The notes under the pieces: model-generated | Told to the model about the DNA's origin: nothing | Databases searched by the model: none | Seen by the model: the letters and a program-made list of their open reading frames with translations, nothing else | In this document: positions 128-38,811 of the stretch, in pieces | How the letters are laid out: the number at the start of each line of letters is the position of its first letter | Position numbering within the stretch: the first letter of the stretch is position 1 | Program-made: the position numbers and the translations under genes | Assembly (NCBI GenBank): GCA_002327985.1 | Contig: DCVM01000012.1 | Span: forward strand, 29-64,028 | Length of the DNA stretch: 64,000 nucleotides | Direction: 5' to 3' | Origin: Syntrophaceae bacterium UBA2188 | Lineage (GTDB): Bacteria > Desulfobacterota > BSN033 > UBA1163

Positions 128-973
128 TTATTTATTCCCAATGGAGGAAATAATTTCTTTAAAATTATAGACGAATTTCCCTGACATGATGCCTCCGTCG
201 ATAGGTATAGCTGCGCCATTGATAAAAGCTGCTTCATCCGAAGCTAAAAAGAGAGCAAGGTTAGCCACTTCTTCGGGCCTTCCTATTCTTCCAATAGGAA
301 TCATGTTTTGGCGCATTTTTTTGAAAGGATGTTCAGAAGTAAAGAATTTGGCAATGGCCTCTGTCTCAATGGTCCCAGGGCAAATACAAACTGTTCTTAT
401 ATTTTGTCTCGAATAATCAAGCGCAACATTTTTAGTAAGGTTTATAATCGCGGCTTTAACACAGTTATAATGGCTGTACCAATGGGCCCCTTCCATTCCA
501 CCCACAGAAGAGATGTTGATGATTACACCTCCTCCGTTCTTCAACATGGCAGGAATTGCAAATTTGTAACCGAGGAAATAACTCCGAAGACCTACGGCAA
601 TAGCTCGATCCCATATTTCAATAGAAACTTCGGTTAAGGGACGGGCCCCCTGGAAATCAAGATAAGCAGCATTGTTAAGGAGGATGTCGAGTCGTCCAAA
701 ATTGGCCAATGTAAAATGAACCATTTCCTCCATTTTAGTAGCATCGGAAACATCGGCTTCGAAGAACAGGCCTTCTCCTCCTTCCTCTTTGATTAGATCA
801 ACTGTCTTTTGCCCGCCTTCCACATTAATATCATTGACTACTACCTTGGCTCCCTCCCGGGCAAAGCGTTTGGATATGGCCCGCCCTATACCCGAACCAG
901 AGGCTGTCAGGAGGGCAACTCGATTCATCAATCTCATATTTTCTTCTCCATCCTTTTCGTTTATTATTAACAA
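128..973 (-). CDS. short-chain dehydrogenase/reductase (SDR) family NAD(P)-dependent oxidoreductase
   Basis: N-terminal Rossmann motif TASGSGIGRA, SDR-length (281 aa), catalytic YxxxK region (YSHYNCVKAA). Confidence 0.85.
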   Translation of the reverse strand: MLIINEKDGEENMRLMNRVALLTASGSGIGRAISKRFAREGAKVVVNDINVEGGQKTVDLIKEEGGEGLFFEADVSDATKMEEMVHFTLANFGRLDILLNNAAYLDFQGARPLTEVSIEIWDRAIAVGLRSYFLGYKFAIPAMLKNGGGVIINISSVGGMEGAHWYSHYNCVKAAIINLTKNVALDYSRQNIRTVCICPGTIETEAIAKFFTSEHPFKKMRQNMIPIGRIGRPEEVANLALFLASDEAAFINGAAIPIDGGIMSGKFVYNFKEIISSIGNK

Positions 974-1030
974 AAGTCAATTCTATATACCCACTCCAAT
1001 ATATTTCTTCACTCAAACTATATCTGCTGA

Positions 1031-2986
1031 CTAAATTTGCCAGCCGGCGACATATCCTTCATGCAAGGCATCGCCAATCTTGCGGGGGCTCACACAGTCC
1101 CCAACTATATATAATTCATTAATTTTATTTTCTAATATTCCGGCAAGTTTGTTTTTAGGTTTAGCACCTAAGGCAAGGACGATCGTATCAGCCTTAAGGA
1201 TTCGGTCTATTCCCTCTTTGTCTGAAACCACCAAACCCTTGGCATTGAACTCCTTGATAGTATGGTTAAAAAGGAAGCTGACTCTATTTTTAGCAAGCTC
1301 TGTTAGAATGGACCGCCGACTTATCGAATTCAAATCCTCGGCAACCTTAGTGCCGGGCCGCACCTTAATAATAGTAACCTTCTTTCCCTTCTGAGCAAGG
1401 TAAAGGGCAGTTTCACAGCCAATAAGCCCTGCACCGACTACAATGATTTCACTCCCTAATTTCTTCTTACTCAAAAAGAGGTCTACTGCACTGACTTTTT
1501 TTTCTTGTTTAATTCCTGGAATGACAGAGACCAGTGGATTCGCTCCAGTGGCTACGATTACCGCTTGGGGTTTCACCTGATCAACTAATTGGGAAGTGAC
1601 TTCTTTTCCCTTTTCGACCCGCACTCCAAATTTGTCCAATTGAACCCGGAGGAATTTCAACAACTCCCCAAGAGAACCCTTGAAAGAAGGTTGTGATGCA
1701 GCCCTCAGTTGTCCCCCCAATTCATTTTCTTTCTCATAAAGGGTAACTTTATGCCCTTTCAGTGCTGCTACTCGTGCTGCTTCCATCCCTGCCGGGCCTC
1801 CCCCAATTACCATAACTTTCTTTGGTTTTTTAGTACGGTGAATCGCATAATATCGTTCTTTGCAAACAGTGGGATTGACCGAGCAAGAAATAGACTTCAT
1901 GAGGAATAAGTTTCCTATACAACGTTCGTTACATCTTATGCAGGGCCGTATGTCTTCCACCCGACCCTCTCTTGCTTTGTTAGGCCAATCGGGGTCGGCA
2001 AACAACGCTCTCCCCAAACAAATAAAGTCTGCTCTCCCTTCATTGAGAATTTGCTCCGCAAGTTCAGGGGTCATAATGCTACCCACTGTGATCACAGGAA
2101 TGTTGACCACTCTTTTGATTGCCCTTGCAAATTCGACCAAGCAACCTTGCGGAAGATAAGTTGGTGGTATGATCAAAGAATCGGCCTCATAGCATCCAGC
2201 ATCGATATGAAGAACGTCTAGCCCTGCAGCCTCCAAACGTCTGGCAATCTCCTGTGATTCTGTCAGGGCACGTCCACCTTCTATTCCATGTTCTGCTGAA
2301 TACCGAAAACTCAGAGGAATTTGCAGTCCTACCTTAGCTCTTATCGTATCGATCATCTCTATGGGGAATCTCATTCTCCCCTCAATGCCTCCGCCGTATT
2401 CGTCGTTGCGTTTATTCCAGAGGGGAGTCATAAACTGATCGATAAGGTAACCAGTATGAGCGTGAAGCTCAATGAGGTCAAAACCAGCTATGGCTGCACG
2501 CAGGGCAGCATCACTACAGGAATAAACTATCCTTTTTATTTCATCCACTGTCAGCTCATGACACAAAATATTAGGATTTACAAAGGAAGGTAATGGTGAT
2601 GCCGATATAGGAACCCTCCCGGGTGTAGCTCCAACCATATATCTTCCAGGGCCAGGGCTAAGTTGTATGCCAATTTTAACTCCAAAGTCGTGAACGGCAT
2701 CTACCAACTCAGCCGCTCTCGGGATATGCCAAGGGGAATCTATGAAAGCCGTTGGGATGTCAGATGGAGGGCTTACCTCCCTCTCCACCATTGTCGCCTC
2801 TGTCAGAATGAGGCCTACGCCTCCCTTCGCCCTTGCAACAAAATAATCGATCTGACGCTCAGAATAACGTCCATCTGGCTCAGCCAATAAGGTCGCCATG
2901 GGAGCCATAACAATTCGGTTTCTCAATGCTAACCTCCCAATATGTCCCGGCTGGAACAACTTAGGGAATCGCTGTTTTTTTGCCAC
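1031..2986 (-). CDS. Old-yellow-enzyme-like NADH:flavin oxidoreductase fused to FAD/NAD(P)-binding domain (2,4-dienoyl-CoA reductase / 2-enoate reductase family)
   Basis: 651 aa; N-terminal OYE TIM-barrel signature (GLILTEATMV, HAHTGYLIDQF), Cys cluster CIRCNERC typical of FadH-like Fe-S site, C-terminal dinucleotide fold VMVIGGGPAGMEAA and second GxGxxG. Confidence 0.8.
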   Translation of the reverse strand: MAKKQRFPKLFQPGHIGRLALRNRIVMAPMATLLAEPDGRYSERQIDYFVARAKGGVGLILTEATMVEREVSPPSDIPTAFIDSPWHIPRAAELVDAVHDFGVKIGIQLSPGPGRYMVGATPGRVPISASPLPSFVNPNILCHELTVDEIKRIVYSCSDAALRAAIAGFDLIELHAHTGYLIDQFMTPLWNKRNDEYGGGIEGRMRFPIEMIDTIRAKVGLQIPLSFRYSAEHGIEGGRALTESQEIARRLEAAGLDVLHIDAGCYEADSLIIPPTYLPQGCLVEFARAIKRVVNIPVITVGSIMTPELAEQILNEGRADFICLGRALFADPDWPNKAREGRVEDIRPCIRCNERCIGNLFLMKSISCSVNPTVCKERYYAIHRTKKPKKVMVIGGGPAGMEAARVAALKGHKVTLYEKENELGGQLRAASQPSFKGSLGELLKFLRVQLDKFGVRVEKGKEVTSQLVDQVKPQAVIVATGANPLVSVIPGIKQEKKVSAVDLFLSKKKLGSEIIVVGAGLIGCETALYLAQKGKKVTIIKVRPGTKVAEDLNSISRRSILTELAKNRVSFLFNHTIKEFNAKGLVVSDKEGIDRILKADTIVLALGAKPKNKLAGILENKINELYIVGDCVSPRKIGDALHEGYVAGWQI

Positions 2987-3225
2987 TCTGATTTCCTTGT
3001 TTAAATAGAAACACTACCTCATTGGCACTATGACCTTGATCAAATCCGTTGTTAAAATCTTGGTATAATTATCGCTTTCTTCTCCTTGGATCATCAGGTC
3101 TTCGCAATCAAAACAGATAAGATCGTGAGGAAGTAGTAAGAGATTAAAAAATTTGCCCGCAGAGCTTTTTTATAAGGATACTCTATTACATGGACAGTTT
3201 CATCGATTAATTGACCATCATCCGT

Positions 3226-4839
3226 TTATTTTTTTGTTTCTCTTATTTTCCAGTCTTTCAATATCTCTTCTCGAAGGATATTCTTTTTGATTTTTCCAAC
3301 CGATGTTTTTGGAAAATCTTCTTTTCTAAAAACCCAAAACCCGGGAACCTTAAACTTAGCCATTTTTTCGTTACAGAATTCTATCAGCTCTTCTTCCGTG
3401 GCAGTCTTACCCTCCTTAAACCTGATGATAGCCAGCACAGCCTCGTCTCTAATGGGGTCGGGGACGCCTAGGATGGTTGACTCTTCGACAGCCGGATGTG
3501 TATTTAGAACACGCTCGACTTCTGCGGAGGCAATATTTTCTCCTGCTCTTTTAATCATATCTTTTTTTCGATCCAACATGTAGAGGTAACCATCCTCATC
3601 CATTCTTCCATAGTCCTCAGAGTAAAACCATCCATCGACAAGGGATTCCGCCGTAGCTCCAGGATTTTTATAATATTCCTTAAATAAGGATATTCCAGGC
3701 TGGCCCTTAATCGCAATTTCCCCTTTTTCGCCAATGGGCATTTCGTTACGATCATCGTCCACAATTTTTACCTCAGTACCAAAGTGTGGCAATCCTACAG
3801 ATCTTCTTGGTCTCTCGCCCCAAATGGGCACCATCGTTGCTGGACCCAGTGTCTCCGTGGATCCATATCCCTCGACCAATATCGTATTAAAACGCCTCTC
3901 AAAGGTATCCCATTCTTCCTCCGAAATAGGGAAGGCATAAGGACCTCTCCACATTTTATTTTCTTTGTCCAAGGGATTTTCAAGTTGGGCTAAAACCATC
4001 CTGACAATAGGTGCAGCAGTAGTACATATCGTACAATGGTAGTTTCTAAGCCATGAGCTGAAACGACTGGCACTGAATCGCTCACAGAGAACAAGACTTC
4101 CCCCGGCTGTCAGACATGCAAAATACAGGACGCATTGAGCGTGAATATGAAAAAGGGGGAGGTAAATCAGATAGCGATCATCTGGGGTAACGATAAAATG
4201 TTTGCAACAAATCTCTCCAATATAGAGAAAATTGGCGTTTGTCAAAATAACCCCTTTCGGGCGAGCGGTTGTTCCTGACGTAAAAAGCATTTCAGCATTA
4301 TCCATCGGATCGATGTCCACCGGAACAAGCTCTGGGGAAGAGCCTGCAAGGATGTCCTCCCAGCAATGGGTCCCAGGGATTTTCTCTGCGGACCGATAAA
4401 TTACAATATCCTTGACAGAGGGACATTTTGAGTGAATGCTGTTAAAAATCGGATAATACTTCCCATCTGTGATGACCAACTTGGCCTCCGAAAAGTTGAG
4501 TTTATACTCCAAATCTTCAGTAACGTCAAAAATAATGGATGGGATCATGACGGCGCCGATTTTTGTGCAAGCATGCAAAGAAACAAGAAATCCTATCGAG
4601 TTGGGTAAATGGGTCAGCACGAAATCCCCCTTCTGAATACCCCGTTGAAGGAGCCAGTTGGCGAATCGATTTACTTTATCGTCAAATTGCCTGTAGGTTA
4701 ATATCTCCTCTTGTTGATCTTCACTCAAAAAAATAATAAAGGGTTTGTCACGGTGCTGACGAACCTTCCTTTCAAGCAGCTTCCTTATATTCATCTTTCT
4801 ACCCATAACAGTTGCATGGTTGAAATTTAACATATCCAT
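3226..4839 (-). CDS. AMP-dependent acyl-CoA synthetase/ligase (CaiC-like)
   Basis: AMP-binding motif LFTSGTTARPKGV, 537 aa, C-terminal conserved GKIKK lysine; RBS GAGGAGG upstream of ATG. Confidence 0.85.
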   Translation of the reverse strand: MDMLNFNHATVMGRKMNIRKLLERKVRQHRDKPFIIFLSEDQQEEILTYRQFDDKVNRFANWLLQRGIQKGDFVLTHLPNSIGFLVSLHACTKIGAVMIPSIIFDVTEDLEYKLNFSEAKLVITDGKYYPIFNSIHSKCPSVKDIVIYRSAEKIPGTHCWEDILAGSSPELVPVDIDPMDNAEMLFTSGTTARPKGVILTNANFLYIGEICCKHFIVTPDDRYLIYLPLFHIHAQCVLYFACLTAGGSLVLCERFSASRFSSWLRNYHCTICTTAAPIVRMVLAQLENPLDKENKMWRGPYAFPISEEEWDTFERRFNTILVEGYGSTETLGPATMVPIWGERPRRSVGLPHFGTEVKIVDDDRNEMPIGEKGEIAIKGQPGISLFKEYYKNPGATAESLVDGWFYSEDYGRMDEDGYLYMLDRKKDMIKRAGENIASAEVERVLNTHPAVEESTILGVPDPIRDEAVLAIIRFKEGKTATEEELIEFCNEKMAKFKVPGFWVFRKEDFPKTSVGKIKKNILREEILKDWKIRETKK

Positions 4840-5065: not shown

Positions 5066-6673
5066 TTACCTTTTTGCCTCACGTTCTTTCCAATATTCCA
5101 AAATATCTCTTCGTAGAATATTCTTCTGGATCTTTCCAACCGAGCTTTTTGGAAAATCTTCCTTTCTGAAAATCCAGAATTGCGGTACCTTAAATTTGGC
5201 CATTCTCTCCTTACAAAATTCTGTCAGTTCCTGCTCGTTCACCCTTTCCTTTAATCTTATCACCGCACATACCGCCTCGTCCCTAACGGGGTCAGGAACG
5301 CCGATGATTGCTGACTCCTCAATCGCTGGATGTAGATTTAGAACACGTTCAACTTCAGCAGAAGAGATGTTCTCGCCCGCTCTCTTGATAATGTCTTTTT
5401 TACGATCTACAAAATAGACATAACCATCTTCATCCATTCTTCCATAATCCTCAGAGTAAAACCATCCATCGACAAGAAACTCCGCTGTCGCCCCAGGATT
5501 TTTATAATATTCCTTAAATAACGAGATCCCAGGCTGGCCCTTAATCGCAATCTCCCCTTTTTCGCCAATGGGCACTTCATTACGGTCATCATCCACAATT
5601 TTTACTTCGGTACCAAAATGTGGGAATCCTACAGACCCTCTTCGCCTTTCACCCCAAATCGGCATAATGGTGGCCGGGCCTAATGTCTCAGTTAAACCAT
5701 ATCCATCGATCAAAATAGTATTGAACCGCCTCTCAAAAGAATTCCATTCCTCGTCTGAAACAGCAATTCCGTAAGGGCTTCTCCACATCCTATTCTCTTT
5801 GTCGAGAGGATGCTCAGGTTGAGGTAAAATCATACGTACAATCGGTGCTCCGGTAGAACATATTGTACAATTATAATTTCTGAGTAAAGAGCTGAACCGG
5901 CTCGCACTGAATCGTTCGCAAATGACGATACTTGCCCCAACGGTCAAACACGGAAAATAGGATATGCACTGAGCATTCACATGGAAAAAAGGTAATATTA
6001 AAAGGAAACGATCATCCGGGATGACGGCAAAGCTCTTAGAGCAAATCTCCCCCATATAGAGAAAATTAGCGTGTGTTAAAATAACTCCTTTCGGGCGAGC
6101 GGTTGTCCCTGACGTAAAAAGCATTTCAGCATTATCCAGTGGTTCGATGTCAAAAAATGGAAGCTCCGGAGAAGAATTTGCAAGGAGATCTTCCCAACGT
6201 TCGGCTCCACGAATTTTCTCCTCGGAGCGATAAATGACAATATCTTTTACCGATGGACATGCAGGCTGAATTTTATCAAATATCGGATAATATTTTCCGT
6301 CTGTAATGACCATTTTGACATCCGAGAAATTTATTTTGTATTTTAGATCCTCGGCCACATCGGAAATGATCGAAGGGATCATAACTGCGCCGATTTTTGT
6401 GCAAGCATGCAAGGAAACAAGAAATCCTATCGAGTTGGGTAAATGGGTCAGCACGAAATCACCCTTCTGAATACCCTGCTTAAGGAGCCAATTGGCAAAT
6501 CGATTTACTTTTTCGTTAAATTGCTTATACGTTAATATTTCTTCATTGAAATTTTCATCCACAAAAATAATGAACGGTTTGTCAGCATGTTGCCGAACTT
6601 TCATCTCAAGCAGTTTCCTTATATTCATCTTTCTGCCAATCACCGTTGCGTTTTGGGGATTGAGAAAATCCAT
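5066..6673 (-). CDS. AMP-dependent acyl-CoA synthetase/ligase, tandem paralog of 3226-4839
   Basis: About 80% aa identity to upstream ligase by eye, same motifs (FTSGTTARPKGV); start placed at internal MDFL with RBS GGGAAGGA (track start 6709 less likely). Confidence 0.85.
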   Translation of the reverse strand: MDFLNPQNATVIGRKMNIRKLLEMKVRQHADKPFIIFVDENFNEEILTYKQFNEKVNRFANWLLKQGIQKGDFVLTHLPNSIGFLVSLHACTKIGAVMIPSIISDVAEDLKYKINFSDVKMVITDGKYYPIFDKIQPACPSVKDIVIYRSEEKIRGAERWEDLLANSSPELPFFDIEPLDNAEMLFTSGTTARPKGVILTHANFLYMGEICSKSFAVIPDDRFLLILPFFHVNAQCISYFPCLTVGASIVICERFSASRFSSLLRNYNCTICSTGAPIVRMILPQPEHPLDKENRMWRSPYGIAVSDEEWNSFERRFNTILIDGYGLTETLGPATIMPIWGERRRGSVGFPHFGTEVKIVDDDRNEVPIGEKGEIAIKGQPGISLFKEYYKNPGATAEFLVDGWFYSEDYGRMDEDGYVYFVDRKKDIIKRAGENISSAEVERVLNLHPAIEESAIIGVPDPVRDEAVCAVIRLKERVNEQELTEFCKERMAKFKVPQFWIFRKEDFPKSSVGKIQKNILRRDILEYWKEREAKR

Positions 6674-6801
6674 ATTCGATCCTTCCCAAATATTACATAG
6701 AAAAGTCACCCTTTAATAATACTTTTGGCACTTTTCCTGAATTTGATAAAACTGTAAAACAATGACGGATGTAACTGATCTAAAATAGGGGCCTTGCCGG
6801 C

Positions 6802-7563
6802 TCATCGGAGCATGATCCCACCATCTATCACGATTGCAGAACCTACCATATAATCGCTGGCTGCTGAAGCAAGAAAAACAGCTAATCCCTTTATTTCTTC
6901 TGGGTTAGCTATCCTGCCGATCGGGACGAGTTTCTTCACCTCTTTTTCGAATCTCTCTCGGCCTTTAGGGTTTAGCTGGGTATCAAAGAGGCCAGGACAT
7001 ATCGCATTGACTTGAATGTTATATGGAATGAGTTCTAAGGCCATCACTCTTGTTAGCATAAGGCCACCCCCTTTGCTAGCACAATAATCCCCACTATGGG
7101 GTAATGGCCTAAATGACCCAATCGAGGTAACATTGATTATCTTTCCTTTCTTTTCTTTGATCATCTCCTTGGCAGCAGCTCTTGAACATAAAAATATTCC
7201 TTTCAAATTGATGGCCTGGGTCTCATCCCATTCTTCGATACTCATCTCTGTCACAGCTTTTGCGCTTCCCGTGATCCCCGCATTATTAACCAATATATCC
7301 ACCTTCCCAAACTTCTTAACCGTGATAGCGATCAAATCTTCAACCTGTTGAGGATGACTGACATCGCAACGGACGGCTAACGTTTTTACACCAAGCTTTT
7401 CTATCTCTAAGCCGACCTCTTCACAAGCGTCTAAATGACGAGCACAAAGAACAATATTTGCCCCTGCTTCAGCCAGCCCTTTAGAAATTCCCAGGCCTAT
7501 CCCCCGATATCCTCCTGTGACCACTGCCACTTTCCCTGTCAGATCAAACATCTGTAATTTCAT
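6802..7563 (-). CDS. SDR family oxidoreductase (3-oxoacyl-ACP reductase-like)
   Basis: VVTGGYRGIGLG Rossmann motif, 253 aa, NNAG and Y..K catalytic elements (YCASKGG). Confidence 0.85.
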   Translation of the reverse strand: MKLQMFDLTGKVAVVTGGYRGIGLGISKGLAEAGANIVLCARHLDACEEVGLEIEKLGVKTLAVRCDVSHPQQVEDLIAITVKKFGKVDILVNNAGITGSAKAVTEMSIEEWDETQAINLKGIFLCSRAAAKEMIKEKKGKIINVTSIGSFRPLPHSGDYCASKGGGLMLTRVMALELIPYNIQVNAICPGLFDTQLNPKGRERFEKEVKKLVPIGRIANPEEIKGLAVFLASAASDYMVGSAIVIDGGIMLR

Positions 7564-7618
7564 AACCTATCCCATTCTATTCTCATTTTAGTTATTAAGA
7601 TAAAATTAGAATCATTCT

Positions 7619-8248
7619 TCATTTATAAACATAACAGCGGCAAGGTTCCTCCCCAATTTTCTCCGGGGGATCCGTGATCATTAATGCTTTCCCTCCTGGT
7701 TCAGTGGGGCAGGTTCCCATGACATAACAGTGGGCGCAGTACACTGGAAAATTTGGCCTATTAAACGTCATAGGCTGGGGTTTCTTAATTCTCAAAAAGC
7801 TACCAGGTGGATCATAGGCACCCTCTAAGACAAGACGACCGCCGCTCCCACAACATGGTTGAGTATGAATAACAAATTTTTCATCATCTTCTTCTATTTT
7901 AATCGGATGGAGGTGCCCCCTCAATCCGGCTGCCAATATCTCAATTTTCTCTCGAGTACTCTTGTTGGCATATCGCTTGCCTAATCGGAGTGATAAGTCA
8001 CCCACTGTTTCTTTCATCGCCTCATACAAAACCTCATCTCCATAATTTTTTCCAATAAACGTTAATAGGCCTGTAATCCAATCTCGATATAAGTCATGCA
8101 TTCCTAAAAATTCATTGTACATCCTCTTACTTAACTTCTTAGCGGTCTTCTTATCCCCAGCCTCGATAGCGGCTTGGAGGAGATCTAATGTCCGTTCTCC
8201 CATCATTCTTAACTCTTCTTCTGTGAAGACTCTTTTCTCCTCCATGTT
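7619..8248 (-). CDS. hypothetical protein with C-terminal Cys-rich motif (CCGSGG...CAHC...C...C.C)
   Basis: ORF embedded in operon; likely true start at MEEKRVF with strong RBS GGGGAG (track ORF extends to 8371 and would overlap the crotonase gene); no recognisable family. Confidence 0.4.
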   Translation of the reverse strand, partial: NMEEKRVFTEEELRMMGERTLDLLQAAIEAGDKKTAKKLSKRMYNEFLGMHDLYRDWITGLLTFIGKNYGDEVLYEAMKETVGDLSLRLGKRYANKSTREKIEILAAGLRGHLHPIKIEEDDEKFVIHTQPCCGSGGRLVLEGAYDPPGSFLRIKKPQPMTFNRPNFPVYCAHCYVMGTCPTEPGGKALMITDPPEKIGEEPCRCYVYK

Positions 8249-8355
8249 CAATTCTCCCCTTTCATGGTTCCGACCTAAATCGTAGGATCTCTTTTCTAAC
8301 TTCCTCGAGGCCTGTTTGTTTCCATAAGAGATAAACGGAGAGCAGTTCTTATCTA

Positions 8356-9144
8356 TTATTTCCCTTGCCAAAGAGGCTTGCGCTTTTCAAGGAAAGCGTT
8401 TATTCCCTCTTTGGAGTCCTTCGTCACAGAAAGCATCAGCGCGGACAATTGGCAGTACTCCATCGCCCCCTCAAGCGGCATGTCTGTCCCTACCTGGATA
8501 GCACGTTTGATATGGGCTATTGATGCAGGTGCGTTTCTCAAAATTCGGCCGGCGAGTTCCTCAGCCGCCTGCAAGACTTCTCCATCCTGGACGATTTTGC
8601 TCACCAAACCGACCCTATAGGCTTCCTGGGCATCAATAGGGTCTCCGGTTAATTCTATATATAGCGCCATCTCTCTCCCGATTAAGCGGGCCAACCTGGC
8701 CGTTGCCCCAGCGCCTGGCATGATACCCAAACCCACCTCTGGCAATCCCAGCTTTGTTTTCTCCGATGCGATACGGAAGTCACAGGCTGTTGCAATCTCA
8801 AGCCCACCACCAAAGGCAATCCCATTGATGGCAGCGATGACTGGTATTCGAAGCCTCTCCAATCGGAAATTAAACCTTGTTAACTTGTCGTGGAGCAGAA
8901 AAAATTCATAAGGTGTCTCTAATGCTTTGTGAATCATCTTTATATCCCCGCCCGATATAAAAGATTTACCTGAACCGGTGAGAATAAGGGCTCCTAACTC
9001 CGCATCCCCTTCAATGTTGGCCAACACACTATCCAATTCAAGAATCATCTGCTCGTTTAAGGCGTTATGAACTTCGGGTCGGTTAAATAGAATGTACCCC
9101 ACCTTACCTTTCTTCTCATAAATAATAGTTTCGTAAGCCATCAT
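8356..9144 (-). CDS. enoyl-CoA hydratase/isomerase (crotonase family)
   Basis: 262 aa; crotonase signatures FISGGDIK, AAINGIAFGGGLEIA, oxyanion-hole region. Confidence 0.85.
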   Translation of the reverse strand: MMAYETIIYEKKGKVGYILFNRPEVHNALNEQMILELDSVLANIEGDAELGALILTGSGKSFISGGDIKMIHKALETPYEFFLLHDKLTRFNFRLERLRIPVIAAINGIAFGGGLEIATACDFRIASEKTKLGLPEVGLGIMPGAGATARLARLIGREMALYIELTGDPIDAQEAYRVGLVSKIVQDGEVLQAAEELAGRILRNAPASIAHIKRAIQVGTDMPLEGAMEYCQLSALMLSVTKDSKEGINAFLEKRKPLWQGK

Positions 9145-9168
9145 TTTTCCCCTTTCAGGAATTGATCC

Positions 9169-10233
9169 TTATAACTCTGGAGAGACCAAAATCTTACAAT
9201 GCTCCAATTTACGCTCTCCCATCAATTCTTTTATCCCTTTTTCCAAAATATCATCCAGTTTTATCTTTGCACTGATCAATTCAGGATCACACCTAACTTT
9301 TTTACTGGTCAAGAGAGAGATCGCGGGAGGGAATTCATCCACATAACCTTGACTTGCGATGATTGTTTTCTCACGGAAAAATAGATTGAAGAATGGGAAA
9401 TCACAGGTAGTTGGCATGGTCCCTACTTCCACAATGGTTGAAGCTTTTCCAGAAACAGTTTCAGACAACAACATTGCATCACTCTTGCCAGCACATTCAA
9501 ACACCACATCAGCTCTCCTTCCTTCAGTCAGTTCAGCAATAGCTCTCCCTGGATCGACCCCTTTTGGATTGATCACTTCCGTTGCACCCAGTTCTTTAGC
9601 CATTTGACCTCTATTAGAAAGCATCTCAAAAACAATGATCTTACCCGCTCCGCAAGCGTTTGCAACCTGCATGGTCAATAAACCAATGGGCCCGGCACCT
9701 ACGATCGCTACGTTAGCCCCGAGTTCCATGCGGCTTCTTTTTACAGCACGGACAGCGCAAGCCAGAGGTTCGGTAAAGGCCCCCATTTCATATGTAACCT
9801 CATTAGGCAATCTATAAACATTGTCATTGGACACGACAATAAATTCAGCAAACGCCCCATCTGCTGCCCCTCCGATACTGCCAAGGATGGCACATTGAAT
9901 ATGTTGACCTTTTTTGCAGTAGTAACACTTGTAGCATGGAATCGTAGGCCTTACCGTCGCTTTATCACCGACTTGGACCCCATGGACATTATCTCCAATT
10001 TTAACCACTTGGCCAGAGAATTCATGACCTCCGGTAATAGGAGCCATCTTCCCTGTGCCAGGATGGGGCTTTTTGACCGGCAAGAGGCCAGCTCCTCCCT
10101 GATACTCTTGAACATCAGCACCGCAAATGCCGCACCATTTCACTTTTATCTTAACCTCCCCTGGACCTGGTTCTGGTTCTGGGATGTTTTCTAATCTCAT
10201 ATCCTTGCCGCCATAATAACGTAACGCCTTCAT
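9169..10233 (-). CDS. Zn-dependent alcohol dehydrogenase, MDR family (butanediol/sorbitol dehydrogenase-like)
   Basis: GICGADV / GHEFSG zinc-ligand motifs, structural-Zn Cys cluster CYKCYYC, NAD fold VAIVGAGPIG. Confidence 0.8.
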   Translation of the reverse strand: MKALRYYGGKDMRLENIPEPEPGPGEVKIKVKWCGICGADVQEYQGGAGLLPVKKPHPGTGKMAPITGGHEFSGQVVKIGDNVHGVQVGDKATVRPTIPCYKCYYCKKGQHIQCAILGSIGGAADGAFAEFIVVSNDNVYRLPNEVTYEMGAFTEPLACAVRAVKRSRMELGANVAIVGAGPIGLLTMQVANACGAGKIIVFEMLSNRGQMAKELGATEVINPKGVDPGRAIAELTEGRRADVVFECAGKSDAMLLSETVSGKASTIVEVGTMPTTCDFPFFNLFFREKTIIASQGYVDEFPPAISLLTSKKVRCDPELISAKIKLDDILEKGIKELMGERKLEHCKILVSPEL

Positions 10234-10282
10234 TTCAACCTCCCTCTGTTTGATTCCCTTTCAAGAATCTGAGTATCCCCCA

Positions 10283-11272
10283 TCAATTCTTAGCTTGTCT
10301 TGATCTAACGATATCTTTGACAGCAGAAATGATGTCAGCCTCCTGTGGTAGGACAGCATTCTCCACAACTGTCCCCCAGGGGATTGGCGTAAATGCCGCT
10401 CCAATACGTCTTATCGGAGCATCTAAATAATCAAATAAATGTTCCACAACGCTCGCCGCTATCTCAGCCCCAAACCCACTTATCTTCACCGCCTCGTGGG
10501 CAATTACCAATTTCCCCGTTTTTTTGACAGAGCTTTCAATCGTCTTCATATCTAAAGGAATTAACGTCCGAAGATCGATAATTTCAATGTTGATTCCCTC
10601 CCTGGCAAGTTTCTCAGCGCTCGTTGCAACTTTAAAAAACAACTGCCCCCATGTAACAACAGTGACATCGGACCCCTCTCTCTTGACATCCGCTTGACCT
10701 AACGGAAGAGTATATTCTTCTTCGGGAATTTCCCCTTTTGCCCGTAAAAACTTATGTTCAATAAAAATGATCGGGTTGTCATCCCTAATGGAAGATTTGA
10801 GAAGGCCTTTCACATCATATGGGGTGCTTGGATATACGACTTTTAAACCAGGAACATGACAAAACCAGGATTCTAAACTCTGCGAGTGACCAGGACCAGC
10901 GCTTACTCCACCCCCCCCCAATGTACGGAAAACAACAGGTGCTTTACACTGACCGGCAGACATGTATCGCATTTTTGCCGCTGAATTTACAATAGAATCC
11001 ATAGCCAAGGCTGTAAAATCCATAAACATGATTTCTGCCACCGGTCTCAGTCCAGAAATCGCTGCCCCAACTGCGATACCGGCGATAGCTGACTCACTAA
11101 TAGGAGTATCTATTATTCTTTTACTGCCAAATGCTTCAAACAAACCCTTGGTAGCGTTAAAACTTCCGCCTGAGATTCCAACATCTTCACCCATGACGAT
11201 AACGCTATCGTCTCTTGCCAACTCCTCTCTTAATGCCTCATTGATCGCTTTAACATATGTAATTTCTTTCAT
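10283..11272 (-). CDS. TPP-dependent 2-oxoacid/acetoin dehydrogenase E1 component beta subunit (AcoB-like), copy 1
   Basis: Transketolase-like pyrimidine-binding N-terminus MKEITYVKAINEALREEL...VIVMGEDVG, 329 aa. Confidence 0.85.
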   Translation of the reverse strand: MKEITYVKAINEALREELARDDSVIVMGEDVGISGGSFNATKGLFEAFGSKRIIDTPISESAIAGIAVGAAISGLRPVAEIMFMDFTALAMDSIVNSAAKMRYMSAGQCKAPVVFRTLGGGGVSAGPGHSQSLESWFCHVPGLKVVYPSTPYDVKGLLKSSIRDDNPIIFIEHKFLRAKGEIPEEEYTLPLGQADVKREGSDVTVVTWGQLFFKVATSAEKLAREGINIEIIDLRTLIPLDMKTIESSVKKTGKLVIAHEAVKISGFGAEIAASVVEHLFDYLDAPIRRIGAAFTPIPWGTVVENAVLPQEADIISAVKDIVRSRQAKN

Positions 11273-11289
11273 TTAGATACCCCAGGTTA

Positions 11290-12252
11290 TTAAACATACA
11301 CATTCTGAAATGCTTGCTCCCTACTTGCCACCGGACTGCTTTTTGCAAATTGAATGGCCTCTTCGATCTCTCTCTTTACGGATTCATCCAACTCATTCAT
11401 TGATTCAAGGGTTAGAATTTTTTCATCCATGAGTCGCTTTTGAAACTTACTCAAAGGATCGACCCTACGTGCCTCTTCGATGTCTTTTGGGTCTCGATAT
11501 TTTTGGGGATCGCCGATATAGTGTCCCTCCCAACGCCTTACCTTACATTCTATTAATGTTGGACCATCCCCTTTTCTCGCCCTCGCTATTGCCTCTCTTG
11601 CTACCTCATAAACTTCCAAAATATCCGTGCCATCCACGACTTTCCCTAACATGTTGTATCCTTCGGCCTTCCGCCATATGTCAACTTGGGACGCGGTCGC
11701 TTTTTGGGGGGTAAATTGTGCCCAACCATTATTTTCAACGACAAAGACGATAGGTAATTTCCATAGCGAAGCGATATTCAAGCTTTCGTGGAAATTTCCT
11801 TCATCCACAGTACCGTCCCCGAAAATACAGATAACCACCTGATCGGACTTTCTGTATTGGCAAGCAAGCGCTACTCCAACAGCAACAGGAATTTGACCCC
11901 CAAGAGTTCCACTTTGTCCAAGTATCCCATATTTCAAATCGAAATAGTGCATCTCACCAGATATCCCTTCACAGGGGCCATTCTTTCTCCCTAACGCCTC
12001 AGCCATAAATCGCTTTAGGGGGACCCTTTTTCCAATGATTATTGCGCGCCCCCGGTGAGTGTTATTGATGTAGTCTTCTGGTTCAAGATATGCAGTGACG
12101 CCCACACCAACGGCCTCTTGCCCGAGATTAGAGTGAAACCAACCCGCAACTTCACCCGTAGTCATTAACTCAATGAGCTTTTCCTCTAATCTCCTTGTTT
12201 TCAACAAGAGTGTAAAAAGTTCCTTTTTCTTCTCATTGCTGACTTCACCCAT
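11290..12252 (-). CDS. TPP-dependent acetoin/2-oxoacid dehydrogenase E1 component alpha subunit (AcoA-like), copy 1
   Basis: TPP-binding GDGTVDEGNFHESLN...VENNGWA motif, 320 aa (AcoA-sized, shorter than BCKDH/PDH E1alpha). Confidence 0.85.
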   Translation of the reverse strand: MGEVSNEKKKELFTLLLKTRRLEEKLIELMTTGEVAGWFHSNLGQEAVGVGVTAYLEPEDYINNTHRGRAIIIGKRVPLKRFMAEALGRKNGPCEGISGEMHYFDLKYGILGQSGTLGGQIPVAVGVALACQYRKSDQVVICIFGDGTVDEGNFHESLNIASLWKLPIVFVVENNGWAQFTPQKATASQVDIWRKAEGYNMLGKVVDGTDILEVYEVAREAIARARKGDGPTLIECKVRRWEGHYIGDPQKYRDPKDIEEARRVDPLSKFQKRLMDEKILTLESMNELDESVKREIEEAIQFAKSSPVASREQAFQNVYV

Positions 12253-12274
12253 ATCGAACCTCTCTTCACCATTT

Positions 12275-13414
12275 TTATCCTGCAGAAAAAAGTTGTTTCG
12301 CTACTATCTCCCGATGGAAATCACTATCGCCAAACGTAATTTCAGCCATTCTACCCATTCTGAAATAAAGGGGCATGTCATGATCCTCGCAATATCCCAC
12401 TCCACCGATGACCTGATGCCCTAAAGCGACAATTCTTCTAAATGCATCATTGCACCAAGCCTTTGCAATCGACACTTCCTTTTCGTAGGGGATGTCCTCA
12501 TCAATCATCCAAGCCCCCTTGTAGGTGACCCACCTACAACCATCAAGGTCAACCAACATATTGCTACAATGATGCTGGATGGCCTGAAAACTACCTATGG
12601 GCTTTCCAAACTGAACCCTTTTCTTTGCATAGGAAACAGCCATATCCAGAACCTGTTGGCCTCCCCCAACCATCTCAGCACATTTGGCCAGGGCTGCTTT
12701 TTGCAGAATTTTTTTTAAGAGTCCCCAACCTTTATTTAATTCACCAAGCACATTTTCCTTGGGTACTCTTACTTTGTTAAAGAAAATTTCATATTGTTTA
12801 TCTTTTGCCATGGTATTAAGAAGCGTATATTTTATTCCTTCGGCTTTTCCATCTATGACAAAAAGTGTAATTCCATCTTCCGGATCTTTTCCCTTTTCGG
12901 TTCTGGCGACACATAACAGGTAATCCGCAACATGGGCATTCGGAACGAACAATTTAGTCCCATGAACGATGAAGCTTTCTCCTTTGGCTTTGGCAGTTAC
13001 TGTAATTGAAGATGGATCATAATCACTTTCGGATTCGGTTATGGCCAAAGTGGCGATTAATTCTCCTTTAGCTATTTTAGGCAACAGCTCTTGCTTTTGT
13101 TGTTTGGTACCAGCTTCTAATATGGTTAATCCTCCTAAAACAACTGTTGAGAAAAAGGGACCTGGAAGGCAGGCACGCCCCATCTCCTCAAGTAACAAAA
13201 TCAATTCCATGAAGTTTCCACCTGTGCCACCAAACTCCTCTGGGAAGATGAGTGCCATCCAACCTAACTCTGCCATTTGGCGCCACAACTCATCTGAATA
13301 ACCTTTCGTGCCTTCAACCATCTCCCTTAATAAGGAACTAGGACATTTATCCATTAAAAATTGTCGAGCACTTTTTCGTATTAATTGTTGCTCTTCGGTA
13401 AATTTAATATCCAT
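12275..13414 (-). CDS. acyl-CoA dehydrogenase
   Basis: 379 aa ACAD fold; N-terminal MDIKFTEEQQLIRKSARQFL, C-terminal FGDSDFHREIVAKQL typical of ACAD. Confidence 0.85.
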   Translation of the reverse strand: MDIKFTEEQQLIRKSARQFLMDKCPSSLLREMVEGTKGYSDELWRQMAELGWMALIFPEEFGGTGGNFMELILLLEEMGRACLPGPFFSTVVLGGLTILEAGTKQQKQELLPKIAKGELIATLAITESESDYDPSSITVTAKAKGESFIVHGTKLFVPNAHVADYLLCVARTEKGKDPEDGITLFVIDGKAEGIKYTLLNTMAKDKQYEIFFNKVRVPKENVLGELNKGWGLLKKILQKAALAKCAEMVGGGQQVLDMAVSYAKKRVQFGKPIGSFQAIQHHCSNMLVDLDGCRWVTYKGAWMIDEDIPYEKEVSIAKAWCNDAFRRIVALGHQVIGGVGYCEDHDMPLYFRMGRMAEITFGDSDFHREIVAKQLFSAG

Positions 13415-13461
13415 TTCTTAACACCTCATGTAAACTGTATAAGTTGAAAAATTAGCCACAT

Positions 13462-14637
13462 TTAATTCCTCGGCAACCCAAGACCTCGTGTAGCCGTGAG
13501 ATTTCTAATAATTTCACTGGTACCTCCACCGATGGTATAGACGACAGACATCCGGCATAATCTTGATATCTCACCTCTCAGTGGAACCCACTTAGAATCC
13601 TCATCTAAACGACCAAAGAACCCCAAAATCTCCATGCCGGTATATGCAAGACGCTGGTACAACTCACTTATAAATAGCTTGCTGATTCCTGACTCGTAGT
13701 CCGGAGATCGCCCTTCAAACAACATTGCGAATGCGCGATATTCAAGGCATTTTGAAACTTCGATCTCAATCGCCATTTGAGCTAACTTGTTTCTCACCAA
13801 GGGATCTTCAGTCATCAACTTTCCATTTCTTCGCGTTTGCCTGGTATATTCAATAATTCTATTTAAGATGGGTACGAGCCTTTCTGTCTGAGACATCATT
13901 AAACGTTCATAATTTAACGCCTCTATCATGTAGTAAAATCCTCTGTTCTTTTCACCCACTAATCGGTTTTTAGGGACTCTTACATCGTCATAGAATACCT
14001 CATTGGTTCTTTCACCCCCCAGTGTCCATATTGGTGTAATGGTGATACCTGGACTCCGTTGATCCACGACAAATAGACTGATGGACTCATGTTTAGGTGC
14101 ATTCAAATCAGTTTTTGCTGCTAACCAATGATAGTCTGCGTAATGAGACTCTGTATTAAATGTTTTTTGTCCGGTGATTAGATAACAATCCTCTTTTTCT
14201 ACAGCGACCATTTGCATAGCTAACAAATCAGACCCAGCCGGAGGTTCAGTATACCCTAAGCCAAATTCTATCTCCCCTCTTGCAATTCGAGGTAGAAATT
14301 CTCTTTTCATCTCTTCAGAGCCATGGTGAAGGATGGTGGGTCCAGACATAAACCGGGCCACTTCATTGGGTATATGGACCTCATGCCGAGCAAACTCCTG
14401 TACAAGAATGAAATCGTGGATGATCGAGCCGTCACTCCCACCGTACTCCTTAGGCCAGCCCAATCCCAACCAACCTTTCGCCCCTAACTTAAGAGCAAAG
14501 GCTCGGCCTTCTGGCCCTAAGCCTTTATCGATTGCATACTGCCGGCGAATTTCGTCGGTTAATTCTTTATCTAAGAAATCGCTCACTTCCTGTCGAAACT
14601 TCTCTTCTTCCGGTGTCGACGTCAAATTGAAATTCAT
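13462..14637 (-). CDS. acyl-CoA dehydrogenase
   Basis: 391 aa; ACAD N-terminal helical domain MNFNLTSTPEEEKFRQEVSDFL, C-terminal IGGGTSEIIRN. Confidence 0.85.
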   Translation of the reverse strand: MNFNLTSTPEEEKFRQEVSDFLDKELTDEIRRQYAIDKGLGPEGRAFALKLGAKGWLGLGWPKEYGGSDGSIIHDFILVQEFARHEVHIPNEVARFMSGPTILHHGSEEMKREFLPRIARGEIEFGLGYTEPPAGSDLLAMQMVAVEKEDCYLITGQKTFNTESHYADYHWLAAKTDLNAPKHESISLFVVDQRSPGITITPIWTLGGERTNEVFYDDVRVPKNRLVGEKNRGFYYMIEALNYERLMMSQTERLVPILNRIIEYTRQTRRNGKLMTEDPLVRNKLAQMAIEIEVSKCLEYRAFAMLFEGRSPDYESGISKLFISELYQRLAYTGMEILGFFGRLDEDSKWVPLRGEISRLCRMSVVYTIGGGTSEIIRNLTATRGLGLPRN

Positions 14638-14734
14638 AAACTCCCCTCAACCCTTTCATATTTTTTTAAAATCAATAAATTTCTTTACTTTTTTCCCATT
14701 TTTACCGATCTCTTCCCCTTTCTCTAAATCATTT

Positions 14735-15406
14735 TTATCCAACGATGCCCAACCCCCTTAAGATAAAATCCATCAAAAAATCAATATTTTTCTTGTTTGA
14801 TCTTTTCTTAAGATTCCATCCCCTTAAGGCAAGGAAGACTGAAAGAAAAGCAATAAGATTTGCTGAAAAATCTTTATCTGTTTTGATTTTTTTCTTCTCA
14901 TATGCCTTTTCCAATACCTGGCGCCAAAAGCCAACGATAAGCTTGTCGTCGAGTGACAGGACCTCATGCAAATATCTCTTTTCCATATATTTGCTCTCGG
15001 TGTAAACAAATAACAATAATTTTTTGTTCTTCGTTATAAACTCAATGGTTCGACGCAGGGCAATTTCCAATAATTTCAAAGGGTCCTTGATTTTCTCAAC
15101 ACCAGACCGTTCGATATTTTCATACCATTTCATTGCAATATATTTGTTCACCAGAAATAAGACATCATCTTTTGAGGATATATAATGGTACAATTTCCCC
15201 ATTGACATCCCACATTCTTGCGCTATTTCACGTATCGTTGTAGGATGAAATCCCTTCTTAAAAAATAATCTACAGGCCCCTTCGATGATCTGCTCATGTC
15301 TGATATCAATCAGTTTTTCATTTTTAGCAGATAATTTAACCAAACCTCTTTGGTGGGACGCTTTAGTGTGTTTGCTACTGACCGATTTTCCTCCAGACGT
15401 TTCCAT
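14735..15406 (-). CDS. TetR family transcriptional regulator
   Basis: HTH region FFKKGFHPTTIREIAQECGMSMGKLYHYISSKDDVLF; embedded between lipB and the ACAD genes; start uncertain (overlaps lipB by about 30 nt). Confidence 0.75.
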   Translation of the reverse strand: METSGGKSVSSKHTKASHQRGLVKLSAKNEKLIDIRHEQIIEGACRLFFKKGFHPTTIREIAQECGMSMGKLYHYISSKDDVLFLVNKYIAMKWYENIERSGVEKIKDPLKLLEIALRRTIEFITKNKKLLLFVYTESKYMEKRYLHEVLSLDDKLIVGFWRQVLEKAYEKKKIKTDKDFSANLIAFLSVFLALRGWNLKKRSNKKNIDFLMDFILRGLGIVG

Positions 15407-16103: not shown

Positions 16104-16135
16104 AGATGGACGATTACTCCGTTGTCCCCTCTTCT

Positions 16136-23211: not shown

Positions 23212-23260
23212 ATATCTACCTCCTAACCACATTTCTCTAAAAATTAGTTTCGATTTATAA

Positions 23261-31629: not shown

Positions 31630-31646
31630 CGACATCTCCCTTACGC

Positions 31647-38807: not shown

Positions 38808-38811
38808 TAAT

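Follow-up and report, generated by a model that had tools for sequence, protein, structure and literature searches.

A composite catabolic island of a Syntrophaceae bacterium brings together three E1 pairs, one E2/E3 and a recurrent acyl-CoA dehydrogenase operon

Gene content and organization of the island

The subject of this report is a catabolic gene island in a 64,000-nt stretch of DNA from Syntrophaceae bacterium UBA2188, an uncultured diderm anaerobe of the Desulfobacterota (assembly GCA_002327985.1, contig DCVM01000012.1, positions 29 to 64,028 of the forward strand), which is referred to below as the window. The island covers positions 128-39444 (~39 kb) and comprises 31 genes, all on a single strand. 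The interval 128-15406, which had been singled out as a catabolic island in the initial annotation, is its downstream part, and every open reading frame (ORF) in it is on the - strand, as are the other genes of the island. The one-strand block is real, but it is made up of three modules (A, B and C) that are separable, and modules A and B have each been found alone on other contigs. Module A contains an AcrAB-TolC set, an AmeABCD-like cassette, two short-chain dehydrogenases/reductases (SDRs), an SGL protein, two E1 alpha/beta pairs, an E2, an E3 and LipB. Module B consists of a TetR regulator, two acyl-CoA dehydrogenases (ACAD1 and ACAD2), a further E1 alpha/beta pair, an alcohol dehydrogenase (ADH), a crotonase, a cysteine-rich protein (CysR) and an SDR. 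Finally, module C holds two duplicated CoA ligases, a flavoenzyme of the old yellow enzyme (OYE) family that resembles FadH and 2-naphthoyl-CoA reductase (NCR), and an SDR. As discussed below, modules A and B are tentatively read as a system for the oxygen-independent cleavage of hydrophobic diols or acyloins.

Pfam confirmed the family of each enzyme that had been listed for the interval, but that list had omitted the first gene of module B, a TetR regulator (14735-15406; Pfam TetR_N), homologs of which (33-35% identity) head the type II operons described below. It is followed by ACAD1 (13462-14637), ACAD2 (12275-13414), E1a_3 (11290-12252) and E1b_3 (10283-11272), which are the E1 alpha and beta subunits of the third pair, and a Zn-dependent ADH of the medium-chain dehydrogenase/reductase superfamily that, by its solved homologs, is butanediol-dehydrogenase-like (9169-10233). 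Next come a crotonase-type enoyl-CoA hydratase (ECH; 8356-9144, Pfam ECH_1), CysR, and a classical SDR that is kept in module B (SDR_c, 6802-7563). Thus, of the Aco-like E1 genes that had been placed upstream of the interval, two pairs do lie there, but a third lies inside it, between the ACAD and ADH genes. The spacers from TetR to SDR_c measure 17-110 nt, and those ahead of ligase 1, ligase 2, the OYE gene and the last SDR measure 128, 226, 239 and 93 nt, respectively. TetR and the upstream LipB gene share 32 nt (15375-15406), with the start codon of TetR inside the end of the LipB ORF, and transcripts of module A would therefore read through the regulator of module B.

Some gene starts differ from those of the ORFs. 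The ORF of CysR spans 7619-8371, but its start is the ATG at 8245 (7619-8245), which has a AAGGGGAG ribosome-binding site 8 nt upstream and yields a protein of 208 aa instead of the 250 assumed initially; this length is backed by an identical called protein (P0001) and by homologs of 207-208 aa. Identical public contigs have the start of ligase 1 at 6673 and that of the last SDR at 937. Searching for the exact sequences of the terminal SDR and the OYE protein gave no match, probably because of start-codon choice. Promoter-like and terminator-like sites were not above the shuffled expectation, and neither an Rfam family nor a tRNA was found in the sequence scanned.

Recurrence of the modules

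To survey the recurrence of the modules, the Cys-rich family was used to scan species-representative genomes and the E1a_3 clade to scan metagenomes, and the contigs of individual homologs were looked up. A set made up of TetR, ACAD1, ACAD2, E1 alpha, E1 beta, ADH, crotonase, E2, E3 and SDR, with or without CysR and with or without LipB/LipA, was found on ~20 independent contigs. All carriers of module B are metagenome-assembled genomes (MAGs) or metagenomes (Desulfobacteraceae, 'Chloroflexia', sediments, peat and subsurface), and all are uncultured. Two gene orders are observed. In type I loci (L008, L014, L084, L086, L089-L092, L107 and L115), the order is ACAD1-ACAD2-E1a-E1b-ADH-ECH-E2-E3-CysR-SDR, and E1 alpha is 50-77% identical to that of the window. 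In type II loci (L124, L137, L140, L147, L150, L153, L159, L163 and L165), the order is TetR-E1a-E1b-ADH-SDR-ECH-E2-E3-ACAD1-ACAD2, and E1 alpha is 45-50% identical. As the same content is retained in a shuffled gene order, there is strong evidence that the genes of module B work together and that their clustering does not result from chance.

Nearly all relatives of module B embed their own E2 and E3 genes. Module B of the window has none, and the only E2 and E3 in the 64 kb are those of module A. Consequently, module B must use the E2 and E3 of module A, which ties the two modules functionally. The E2 and E3 of the window are 65% identical to those of L171, but 35-41% identical to those embedded in the relatives of module B. 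Two further contigs, also from uncultured organisms, carry the module A block itself: L171, which has three E1 pairs and is 65-75% identical, and L172. When metagenomes were scanned with SGL as the sole query, no relatives were retrieved. On a second contig, L092 (Ga0209777_10014794), the crotonase is likewise followed directly by CysR, apparently with no embedded E2/E3.

It could be argued that the three modules are independent neighbouring operons that serve different substrates, in which case the island would be one of position only. Several observations fit this: modules A and B have other neighbours where each occurs alone, a TetR gene stands between them, and the ligase and OYE genes have gaps of 128-239 nt ahead of them. 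In addition, module C is outside the conserved core, with the ligases and OYE being absent beside most relatives of module B. Nevertheless, we regard such independence as quite unlikely, since module B is devoid of the E2/E3 whose only copy in 64 kb belongs to module A, the 31 genes share one strand with TetR overlapping the LipB stop, and homologs of the module C enzymes do occur near related E1 genes (OYE and CaiC-like ligases among L089, L109, L111, L115 and L159, with OYE in the last four).

The relatives differ in what surrounds the core. In L088 (ENA ERZ25039477 contig_18342, 6781-16699), the ACAD pair is replaced by a 2-hydroxyacyl-CoA dehydratase (two HGD-D subunits plus a BcrAD/BadFG activase); an aldehyde:ferredoxin oxidoreductase (AOR) gene is found upstream, and a DUF6125 protein is encoded downstream of E3, at the position of CysR in type I loci. 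In L084/L085 (1584-7393 and 19940-20963), the flanks consist of acetone-carboxylase-like genes (hydantoinase A/B and Acetone_carb_G), a family III CoA-transferase and CoA_trans A/B, which suggests a ketone as substrate or product. L086 carries a Liv-type ABC transporter. Lastly, in L171/L173 (17861-19984 in L173 coordinates), the relative of module A, with its three E1 pairs and a metallo-beta-lactamase-fold protein, is succeeded immediately by the genes for both subunits, large and small, of a B12 acyl-CoA mutase and by a NIPSNAP-like gene.

The E1/E2/E3 complex and the adjacent alcohol dehydrogenase

The window encodes three E1 alpha/beta pairs, all with E1 domains of the heterotetramer type according to Pfam, along with a single E2 and a single E3. 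In module A, these are E1a_1 (22237-23232; E1_dh), E1b_1 (21153-22217; Transket_pyr and Transketolase_C), E1a_2 (20000-21019; E1_dh), E1b_2 (18915-19979; Transket_pyr and Transketolase_C), E2 (17549-18862; lipoyl, E3-binding and catalytic domains by Pfam), E3 (16136-17515; Pfam) and the octanoyltransferase LipB (15375-16166; Pfam). The lysine context typical of lipoyl domains, ETEKT, is present in E2. E1a_1 and E1a_2 are 59% identical to each other and each is 41% identical to E1a_3, while E1b_1 and E1b_2 (354 aa) are ~25 aa longer than E1b_3 (329 aa).

Several features relate E1a_3 to the E1 alpha subunits of aco-type (acetoin) operons. It is 34-42% identical to these, versus 33% to the pyruvate dehydrogenase (PDH) subunit PdhA and 28% to branched-chain 2-oxoacid dehydrogenase (BCKDH). 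In a neighbour-joining (NJ) tree, which is only indicative because its six references are defined by operon context and there is no bootstrap, the E1a_3 clade, with the type II and plain E1-E2-E3 operons, groups with three aco-type operon E1 alpha subunits, and PdhA of S. aureus and BCKDH of Rhizobium fall outside this group. The loop GH(Y/F)xGDxxxYR is common to the E1a_3 clade and the aco-type E1 alpha subunits. On annotated plasmids, the best matches of E1a_3 are generic 'TPP-dependent E1 alpha' genes, and the three operons inspected have the layout of acetoin operons: that of Enterococcus gilvus contains a sigma-54 regulator, lpdA, E1 alpha/beta and E2; that of Acinetobacter contains E1 alpha/beta, E2, lpdA and an acetoin reductase; and the third is from C. 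difficile.

The gene next to E1 beta points in the same direction. The best solved homolog of the ADH is (R,R)-butanediol dehydrogenase (6ie0, 245 bits), versus 169 bits for sorbitol dehydrogenase, and JGI gives the name butanediol dehydrogenase to a protein in the 90%-identity cluster of this ADH. This ADH gene directly follows E1 beta in both type I and type II operons. In the anaerobe Pelobacter carbinolicus, the aco cluster likewise includes lipB, lipoate synthase and butanediol dehydrogenase genes (PMC3543383). In general, the AOR gene of L088 and the acetone-carboxylase-like and 3-oxoacid CoA-transferase flanks of L084 fit the release of a carbonyl co-product, as expected for acyloin cleavage, and not the decarboxylation of a 2-oxoacid.

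Compared with the Aco system (AcoABCL, and acoABCSL with lipB and budX in P. carbinolicus), the window shares an alpha2beta2 thiamine diphosphate (ThDP)-dependent E1, a lipoyl-E2 with a 2-oxoacid_dh domain, an E3, a lipoate-attachment gene in the cluster, and an ADH of the butanediol dehydrogenase type adjoining E1, and E1a_3 groups with aco-type subunits in the tree, which is indicative only. By contrast, it has three E1 pairs for a single E2/E3, and its E1 is part of a conserved operon that also encodes an alpha2beta2 ACAD, a crotonase, an SDR and a Cys-rich protein. No sigma-54 domain of the AcoR type was found among the window ORFs scanned, whose regulators belong to the TetR family (AcoX was not searched for). 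Furthermore, E1 pairs 1 and 2 stand apart as a clade of their own, in which the loop is altered to PHxxGxxD, has a four-residue insert and lacks the YR found in the E1 alpha subunits of Aco, PDH and BCKDH. The substrate is probably not acetoin itself. The clade of E1a_1 and E1a_2 is populous, with 5764 database proteins at E<1e-50.

An alternative for the complex is that E1/E2/E3 are BCKDH-type 2-oxoacid dehydrogenases, with three pairs for three specificities, and that module B serves a branched-chain or 2-oxo/2-hydroxy-acid route. In effect, E1 alpha/beta, E2, E3, ACAD, hydratase and SDR make up the common trunk of branched-chain amino-acid degradation (isoleucine and valine), and a cluster on a Rhizobium plasmid (L178) assembles HADH (3-hydroxyacyl-CoA dehydrogenase), thiolase, ACAD, BCKDH E1 alpha/beta, E2 and lpdA. 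The Liv-type transporter of L086 and the 2-hydroxyacyl-CoA dehydratase with its activase in L088, which is typical of 2-oxo/2-hydroxy-acid fermentations, would also be in line with such a route, as would the PDH E1 models that are the best NCBIfam matches. No BCKDH model, however, is among the NCBIfam matches of the E1 subunits, E1a_3 is less similar to the BCKDH reference than to the aco-type subunits, and, among solved structures, it is nearest to human PDH E1 alpha (198 bits), with BCKDH E1 alpha at 107-144 bits. Although L178 also joins E1 alpha/beta, E2, E3 and ACAD, the E1 alpha subunits of the window are 27-28% identical to its BCKDH E1 alpha, and the window has a butanediol-dehydrogenase-like ADH, a heteromeric ACAD and CysR but no thiolase or HADH. 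The ADH invariably beside E1 beta has no role in that pathway, the cluster contains no aminotransferase or amino-acid dehydrogenase, and the ketone-carboxylase and AOR flanks suggest a carbonyl co-product. Moreover, strict anaerobes usually employ ferredoxin-dependent 2-oxoacid oxidoreductases. A BCKDH-type function is, thus, judged unlikely.

Beta-oxidation-like enzymes

The best solved homologs of ACAD1 are Tcur3483 (238 bits) and ChsE4 of M. tuberculosis (4x28_A, 226 bits), both of which are catalytic subunits of alpha2beta2 ACADs. Its Glu244, which is invariant in 16 homologs, aligns with Glu247 of ChsE4, the catalytic base of that enzyme. ACAD2, on the other hand, lacks a Glu at both the ChsE4-type and the medium-chain ACAD-type base positions in 17 homologs, where Ala and Phe/Tyr/Leu are found. 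It matches Tcur3481 with 136 bits, and scores higher to homomeric, ordinary short-chain ACADs. In NCBIfam, the best models for the pair are PimC-large and PimD-small, with scores far below the cut-off. ACAD1 also keeps a Pro that aligns with Pro91 of ChsE4, a residue tied to an enlarged cavity, and in alpha2beta2 ACADs the base and the substrate site are in the alpha subunit only (PMC10925408). From these sequence features, ACAD1 and ACAD2 are read as an alpha2beta2 enzyme of the ChsE4/ChsE5 type with ACAD1 as the catalytic subunit and ACAD2 as the non-catalytic one. The two adjacent ACAD genes with a catalytic Glu in only one subunit recall ChsE4-ChsE5/FadE26-FadE27, Tcur3483-Tcur3481 and PimCD. 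Unlike steroid side-chain systems, the window has no further genes of steroid catabolism, its hydratase belongs to the ordinary crotonases, the pair occurs in an anaerobe beside an Aco-like E1, and ACAD2 is less close to ChsE5 than to short-chain ACADs.

The crotonase is most similar, among solved proteins, to 3-hydroxypropionyl-CoA dehydratase (5zai, 204 bits) and short-chain enoyl-CoA hydratase, and inspection by eye finds both catalytic Glu residues, in GGGLE and PEVGLG. A ring hydrolase of the BadI/Dch type was considered for this gene and rejected, as both hydratase Glu are kept and the homologs are short-chain enzymes. The BadH/BadI/Dch-type ring pathway that had been put forward for comparison is, for the same reasons, not indicated by the only crotonase of the locus. 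The Bad/Ali/Pim pathways of Rhodopseudomonas palustris do resemble the window in their CoA ligase, ACAD, hydratase and SDR chemistry and in having PimC/PimD as top NCBIfam models. Nevertheless, no BadI-type ring hydrolase was recognised in the window, cyclohexanecarboxyl-CoA dehydrogenase models score far below their cut-off, and the E1/E2/E3 complex has no counterpart in those pathways.

The initial annotation had described the beta-oxidation toolkit as incomplete, with no thiolase or classical HADH and with SDRs as possible substitutes. These absences are borne out across the long ORFs of the 64 kb: neither these ORFs nor those of the identical contig L001 past the left end of the window match Thiolase_N/Thiolase_C, and no dehydrogenase of the 3HCDH family is encoded in the long ORFs of the 64 kb, where only sub-threshold 3HCDH_N matches to the Rossmann folds of OYE and E3 were seen. 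A thiolase/HADH pair immediately outside the window, which would have completed an ordinary pathway, is lacking on the downstream side, for which L001 provides ~2.5 kb. In place of 3HCDH proteins there are five SDRs, with three SDR-type genes counted in the interval 128-15406. SDR_c has homologs of 48-67% identity in type I and type II operons, and its solved homologs are generic FabG and gluconate-5-dehydrogenase proteins; by homology and position, it is a candidate 3-hydroxyacyl-CoA dehydrogenase. This substitution is made plausible by Desulfococcus biacutus, where an SDR annotated as FabG serves as 3-hydroxybutyryl-CoA dehydrogenase (PMC7888143). Among the relatives, an SCPx-type thiolase with DUF35 lies beside the operon in L088 and L090, and a FadB-like protein is encoded in L089. 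As these genes adjoin the operons of relatives, the missing thiolase and HADH are probably encoded elsewhere in the genome, so that the toolkit is incomplete at this locus but probably not in the organism.

The cysteine-rich protein

CysR matches no Pfam or NCBIfam model, in agreement with its original description as a Cys-rich protein of no known family. It is, however, a member of a sizeable family: one search retrieved 764 homologs, and an exhaustive one gave 880 clusters when grouped at 50% identity. The closest homologs in genomes are from MAGs of Desulfobacterales and Syntrophaceae (63-64% identity). The invariant residues are C132 (in CGSGGR), C170 and C173 (in FPVYCAHC), C202, H50, H111 and H172. 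The AlphaFold2 model has a predicted local distance difference test score (pLDDT) of 89.9, and the remote fold matches are to BcsD, Bet3/TRAPP and the phenol-sensor domains of MopR/PoxR. We take CysR to be a small accessory protein that probably binds metal and that would bind a hydrophobic ligand or an acyl group.

Three kinds of genomic context were found for the family, all of them linked to acyl-CoA metabolism. Besides the type I operons, a single type II operon carries CysR. In five or six loci, its gene comes after that of a B12 acyl-CoA mutase and precedes those of a hydratase and HADH, and in three loci it stands behind an activase of the BcrAD/BadFG type. In L004, L005, L010-L012 and L018, it adjoins the B12-binding small subunit of the mutase, which it follows in five of these loci, and in L018 it precedes the mutase genes. 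Among the homologs, P0117 is a fusion with a B12-binding domain, and one homolog has a weak B12-binding_2 match (E 0.005). Other leads were not fruitful. A CysR gene was expected after the B12 mutase of L171, as in the five or six other loci, but the NIPSNAP-like gene is there instead. Long relatives with informative fused domains were sought and, apart from P0117, discarded: ten have no Pfam domain and look like tandem duplications, as do many relatives of CysR that lack other domains. Kinship with the DUF6125 protein of L088 was rejected (hhalign probability 1%), and a link to the acetone pathway of sulfate reducers is not supported by PMC7888143. In Binatia, the CysR neighbours look like housekeeping genes, as judged by translations only; these MAGs are closely related, so their shared gene order is uninformative.

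Transport genes and the substrate

The upstream part of module A is devoted to transport. From its upstream edge, the island starts with a second TetR regulator (38812-39444; TetR_N), followed by OEP (37488-38843; OEP), an HlyD-type adaptor (36307-37416; HlyD_D23) and AcrB (33063-36164; ACR_tran, 966 bits). The AmeABCD-like cassette follows, and consists of a BNR/Ycf48-like protein (31647-32669), an HAE3/MMPL protein of the resistance-nodulation-division (RND) type (29212-31635), a DUF1302 outer-membrane protein (27414-28985) and a DUF1329/LolA-like protein (25914-27356). Next are the two SDRs of module A (25082-25852 and 24275-25063) and a beta-propeller protein of the SGL (SMP-30/gluconolactonase-like) family (23261-24220), all of them assigned by Pfam. 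The DUF1302/DUF1329/BNR/HAE3 cassette is kept together with E1 genes, SDRs and SGL in L171 (where the cassette is 72-75% identical) and L172.

The same four families form AmeABCD of Castellaniella defragrans, an anaerobic degrader that carries them in its monoterpene island (PMC6394551). The two systems, of which AmeABCD is for the efflux of apolar monoterpenes, are alike in having DUF1302, DUF1329/LolA-like, BNR/Ycf48-like (COG4447) and HAE3 RND proteins inside a catabolic island. In the window, the BNR and RND genes precede those for DUF1302 and DUF1329 (the order in C. defragrans was not compared), and, unlike AmeABCD, the cassette is coupled to SDRs, SGL and E1 genes, a coupling that is maintained in L171 and L172. 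Furthermore, in Pseudomonas putida, DUF1302/DUF1329 and BNR/RND genes have fitness phenotypes on fatty esters, and the RND operon includes a putative lactonase (bioRxiv 10.1101/2020.07.04.188060). Thus, the AmeABCD-like cassette and the AcrAB-TolC set indirectly indicate, without identifying it, a hydrophobic and possibly toxic substrate. That this substrate is alicyclic, branched or terpenoid, as initially suggested, is a guess.

CoA ligases and the flavoenzyme

In module C, the two CoA ligases (ligase 1, ORF 5066-6709; ligase 2, 3226-4839; both Pfam AMP-binding) are a tandem duplication, with 78% protein identity by BLASTP and direct DNA repeats of 77-80% identity at a period of ~1.83 kb. 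Their best NCBIfam model is CaiC, at 437-446 bits versus a cut-off of 651. The next gene encodes the OYE enzyme (1031-2986; Pfam Oxidored_FMN and Pyr_redox_2), an FMN/[4Fe-4S]/FAD enoate reductase of the FadH/NCR type, which has a CxxCxxxCx11C cluster motif at residue 349. Its best solved homologs are 2-naphthoyl-CoA reductase (6qkg, 318 bits) and FadH (1ps9, 296 bits). As in FadH (2,4-dienoyl-CoA reductase) and NCR, the FMN-binding OYE domain is combined with the CxxCxxxCx11C [4Fe-4S] motif and a FAD/NAD(P) domain. By contrast, the enzyme scores far below every cut-off of the named OYE equivalogs (BaiCD, mycofactocin OYE and bilirubin reductase). The last gene of the island is the terminal SDR (SDR_d; ORF 128-973, Pfam; 269 aa in L001).

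Proposed pathway

From homology and gene context, the general scheme would be the cleavage of a diol or acyloin by a ThDP/lipoyl complex, followed by part of beta-oxidation, and we give it about an even chance. In this scheme, the cassette and the AcrAB-TolC set of module A would transport or expel a hydrophobic compound, which its SDRs and SGL would modify, and its two specialised ThDP E1 heterotetramers would share one lipoyl-E2, E3 and LipB. The ADH, or the SDRs, would convert a vicinal diol into an alpha-hydroxy-ketone (acyloin), the C-C bond of which would be cleaved by one of the three E1 enzymes. One half of the acyloin would be passed as an acyl group through the shared lipoyl-E2 to CoA, and the other half would be released, in the case of a tertiary carbinol as a ketone and otherwise as an aldehyde. 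If the acyloin were part of a ring, the cleavage would open the ring to give an omega-oxo-acyl-CoA. The acyl-CoA may then undergo one turn by the alpha2beta2 ACAD, the crotonase and an SDR acting as 3-hydroxyacyl-CoA dehydrogenase, and thiolysis would be left to an enzyme encoded elsewhere. Finally, the CoA ligases of module C may activate acid products, and the FadH/NCR-type reductase may remove conjugated double bonds.

That the gene set is tailored to something other than ordinary fatty-acid beta-oxidation, as the initial annotation had it, agrees with the ACAD pair of the ChsE4/ChsE5 type, the butanediol-dehydrogenase-like ADH, the grouping of E1a_3 with aco-type subunits and the AmeABCD-like cassette upstream. 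Likewise, full-text searches, whose coverage of the literature is incomplete, found no such combination of genes, in keeping with the statement that the pathway has no described match. Each enzyme belongs to a known family, and what appears to be undescribed is their conserved combination: an Aco-type E1/E2/E3 in an operon with an alpha2beta2 ACAD, crotonase, SDR and CysR; several E1 specificities on one E2/E3; and their coupling to an AmeABCD-like cassette. In its full form, the proposal is that modules A and B represent a widespread and undescribed way of opening C-C bonds in hydrophobic acyloins or vicinal diols without O2, with alicyclic or terpenoid rings and the ends of isoprenoids as possible targets. 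Specialised Aco-type E1 enzymes on a shared E2/E3 would deliver the CoA thioester to a dedicated ACAD/crotonase/SDR set, and a Bet3/V4R-like, probably metal-binding family of ~880 clusters would be an integral component. This full form is possible but doubtful, and is advanced as a tentative reading.

Several points weigh against the proposal. For every E1 subunit, the top NCBIfam model is one of PDH. The scores of the three E1 alpha subunits and of E1b_2 are below the PDH cut-offs (241-327 bits for E1 alpha against curated PDH equivalogs, with cut-offs of 394-411), but those of E1b_3 (397.7) and E1b_1 (331.6) are above the 321 bits required by the PDH E1-beta subfamily model NF006667. The assignment of E1 leans on a small NJ tree with six operon-context references, in which E1a_1 and E1a_2 form, with the proteins of L171 and L172, a deep separate clade. 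The window has no aldehyde dehydrogenase or AOR for the predicted aldehyde. The crotonase looks like a short-chain enzyme, whereas the ACAD resembles those for bulky substrates. In addition, the modules occur separately elsewhere, with gaps of 128-239 nt ahead of the ligases and OYE here, and sets of BCKDH, ACAD, HADH and thiolase that are similar to module B in composition do exist, as in L178.

A further alternative concerns the direction of the E1 reaction. Aco-type E1 can run in reverse, and methylacetoin is formed from acetone in this manner. The E1 enzymes might, then, be mainly carboligating, joining a ketone or aldehyde to a ThDP-bound acyl anion equivalent, or the cluster might make acyloin-type lipids or signals. 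The acetone-carboxylase-like genes that flank one relative would fit this, as would the CysR homologs beside B12 acyl-CoA mutases, which are enzymes of ketone and tertiary-alcohol metabolism in sulfate reducers. Nevertheless, E2, E3 and LipB serve no purpose other than oxidative transfer to CoA, the ACAD, hydratase, ligases, uptake/efflux genes and TetR regulators are typical of catabolism, and no biosynthetic genes are present, which makes carboligation very improbable.

Surroundings of the island

Beyond 39.4 kb, the genes look like housekeeping genes or unrelated to catabolism, as judged by Pfam and by reading translations. Pfam assigns no family at E<=1e-5 to three ORFs at 39584-41513 and 47464-48051 (204, 416 and 195 aa). 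The window has few + strand genes, and one of them (49959-51275), for a B12-binding radical SAM protein with DUF4070, is unrelated to the island. On the other side, the genes after the terminal SDR are also unrelated: the identical contig L001 extends ~2.5 kb past the left end of the window and encodes an SLT protein, a CDP-alcohol phosphatidyltransferase and an epimerase on the opposite strand.

Implications for anaerobic catabolism

Among uncultured anaerobes of sediments and the subsurface, Desulfobacterota and Chloroflexota included, the core operon is a common one. For CysR, it provides a defined genomic context for a sizeable family that has no Pfam or NCBIfam model, and the island as a whole offers a concrete case of several E1 specificities on one E2/E3 core. 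If the proposed cleavage were correct, ThDP/lipoyl complexes of the acetoin type would not be limited to C4 fermentation products, but would constitute a general, energy-conserving and oxygen-independent means of cutting C-C bonds beside oxygenated carbons in hydrophobic compounds. In that case, a missing type of reaction would be added to models of the anaerobic degradation of lipids, terpenoids and hydrocarbon-derived alcohols.

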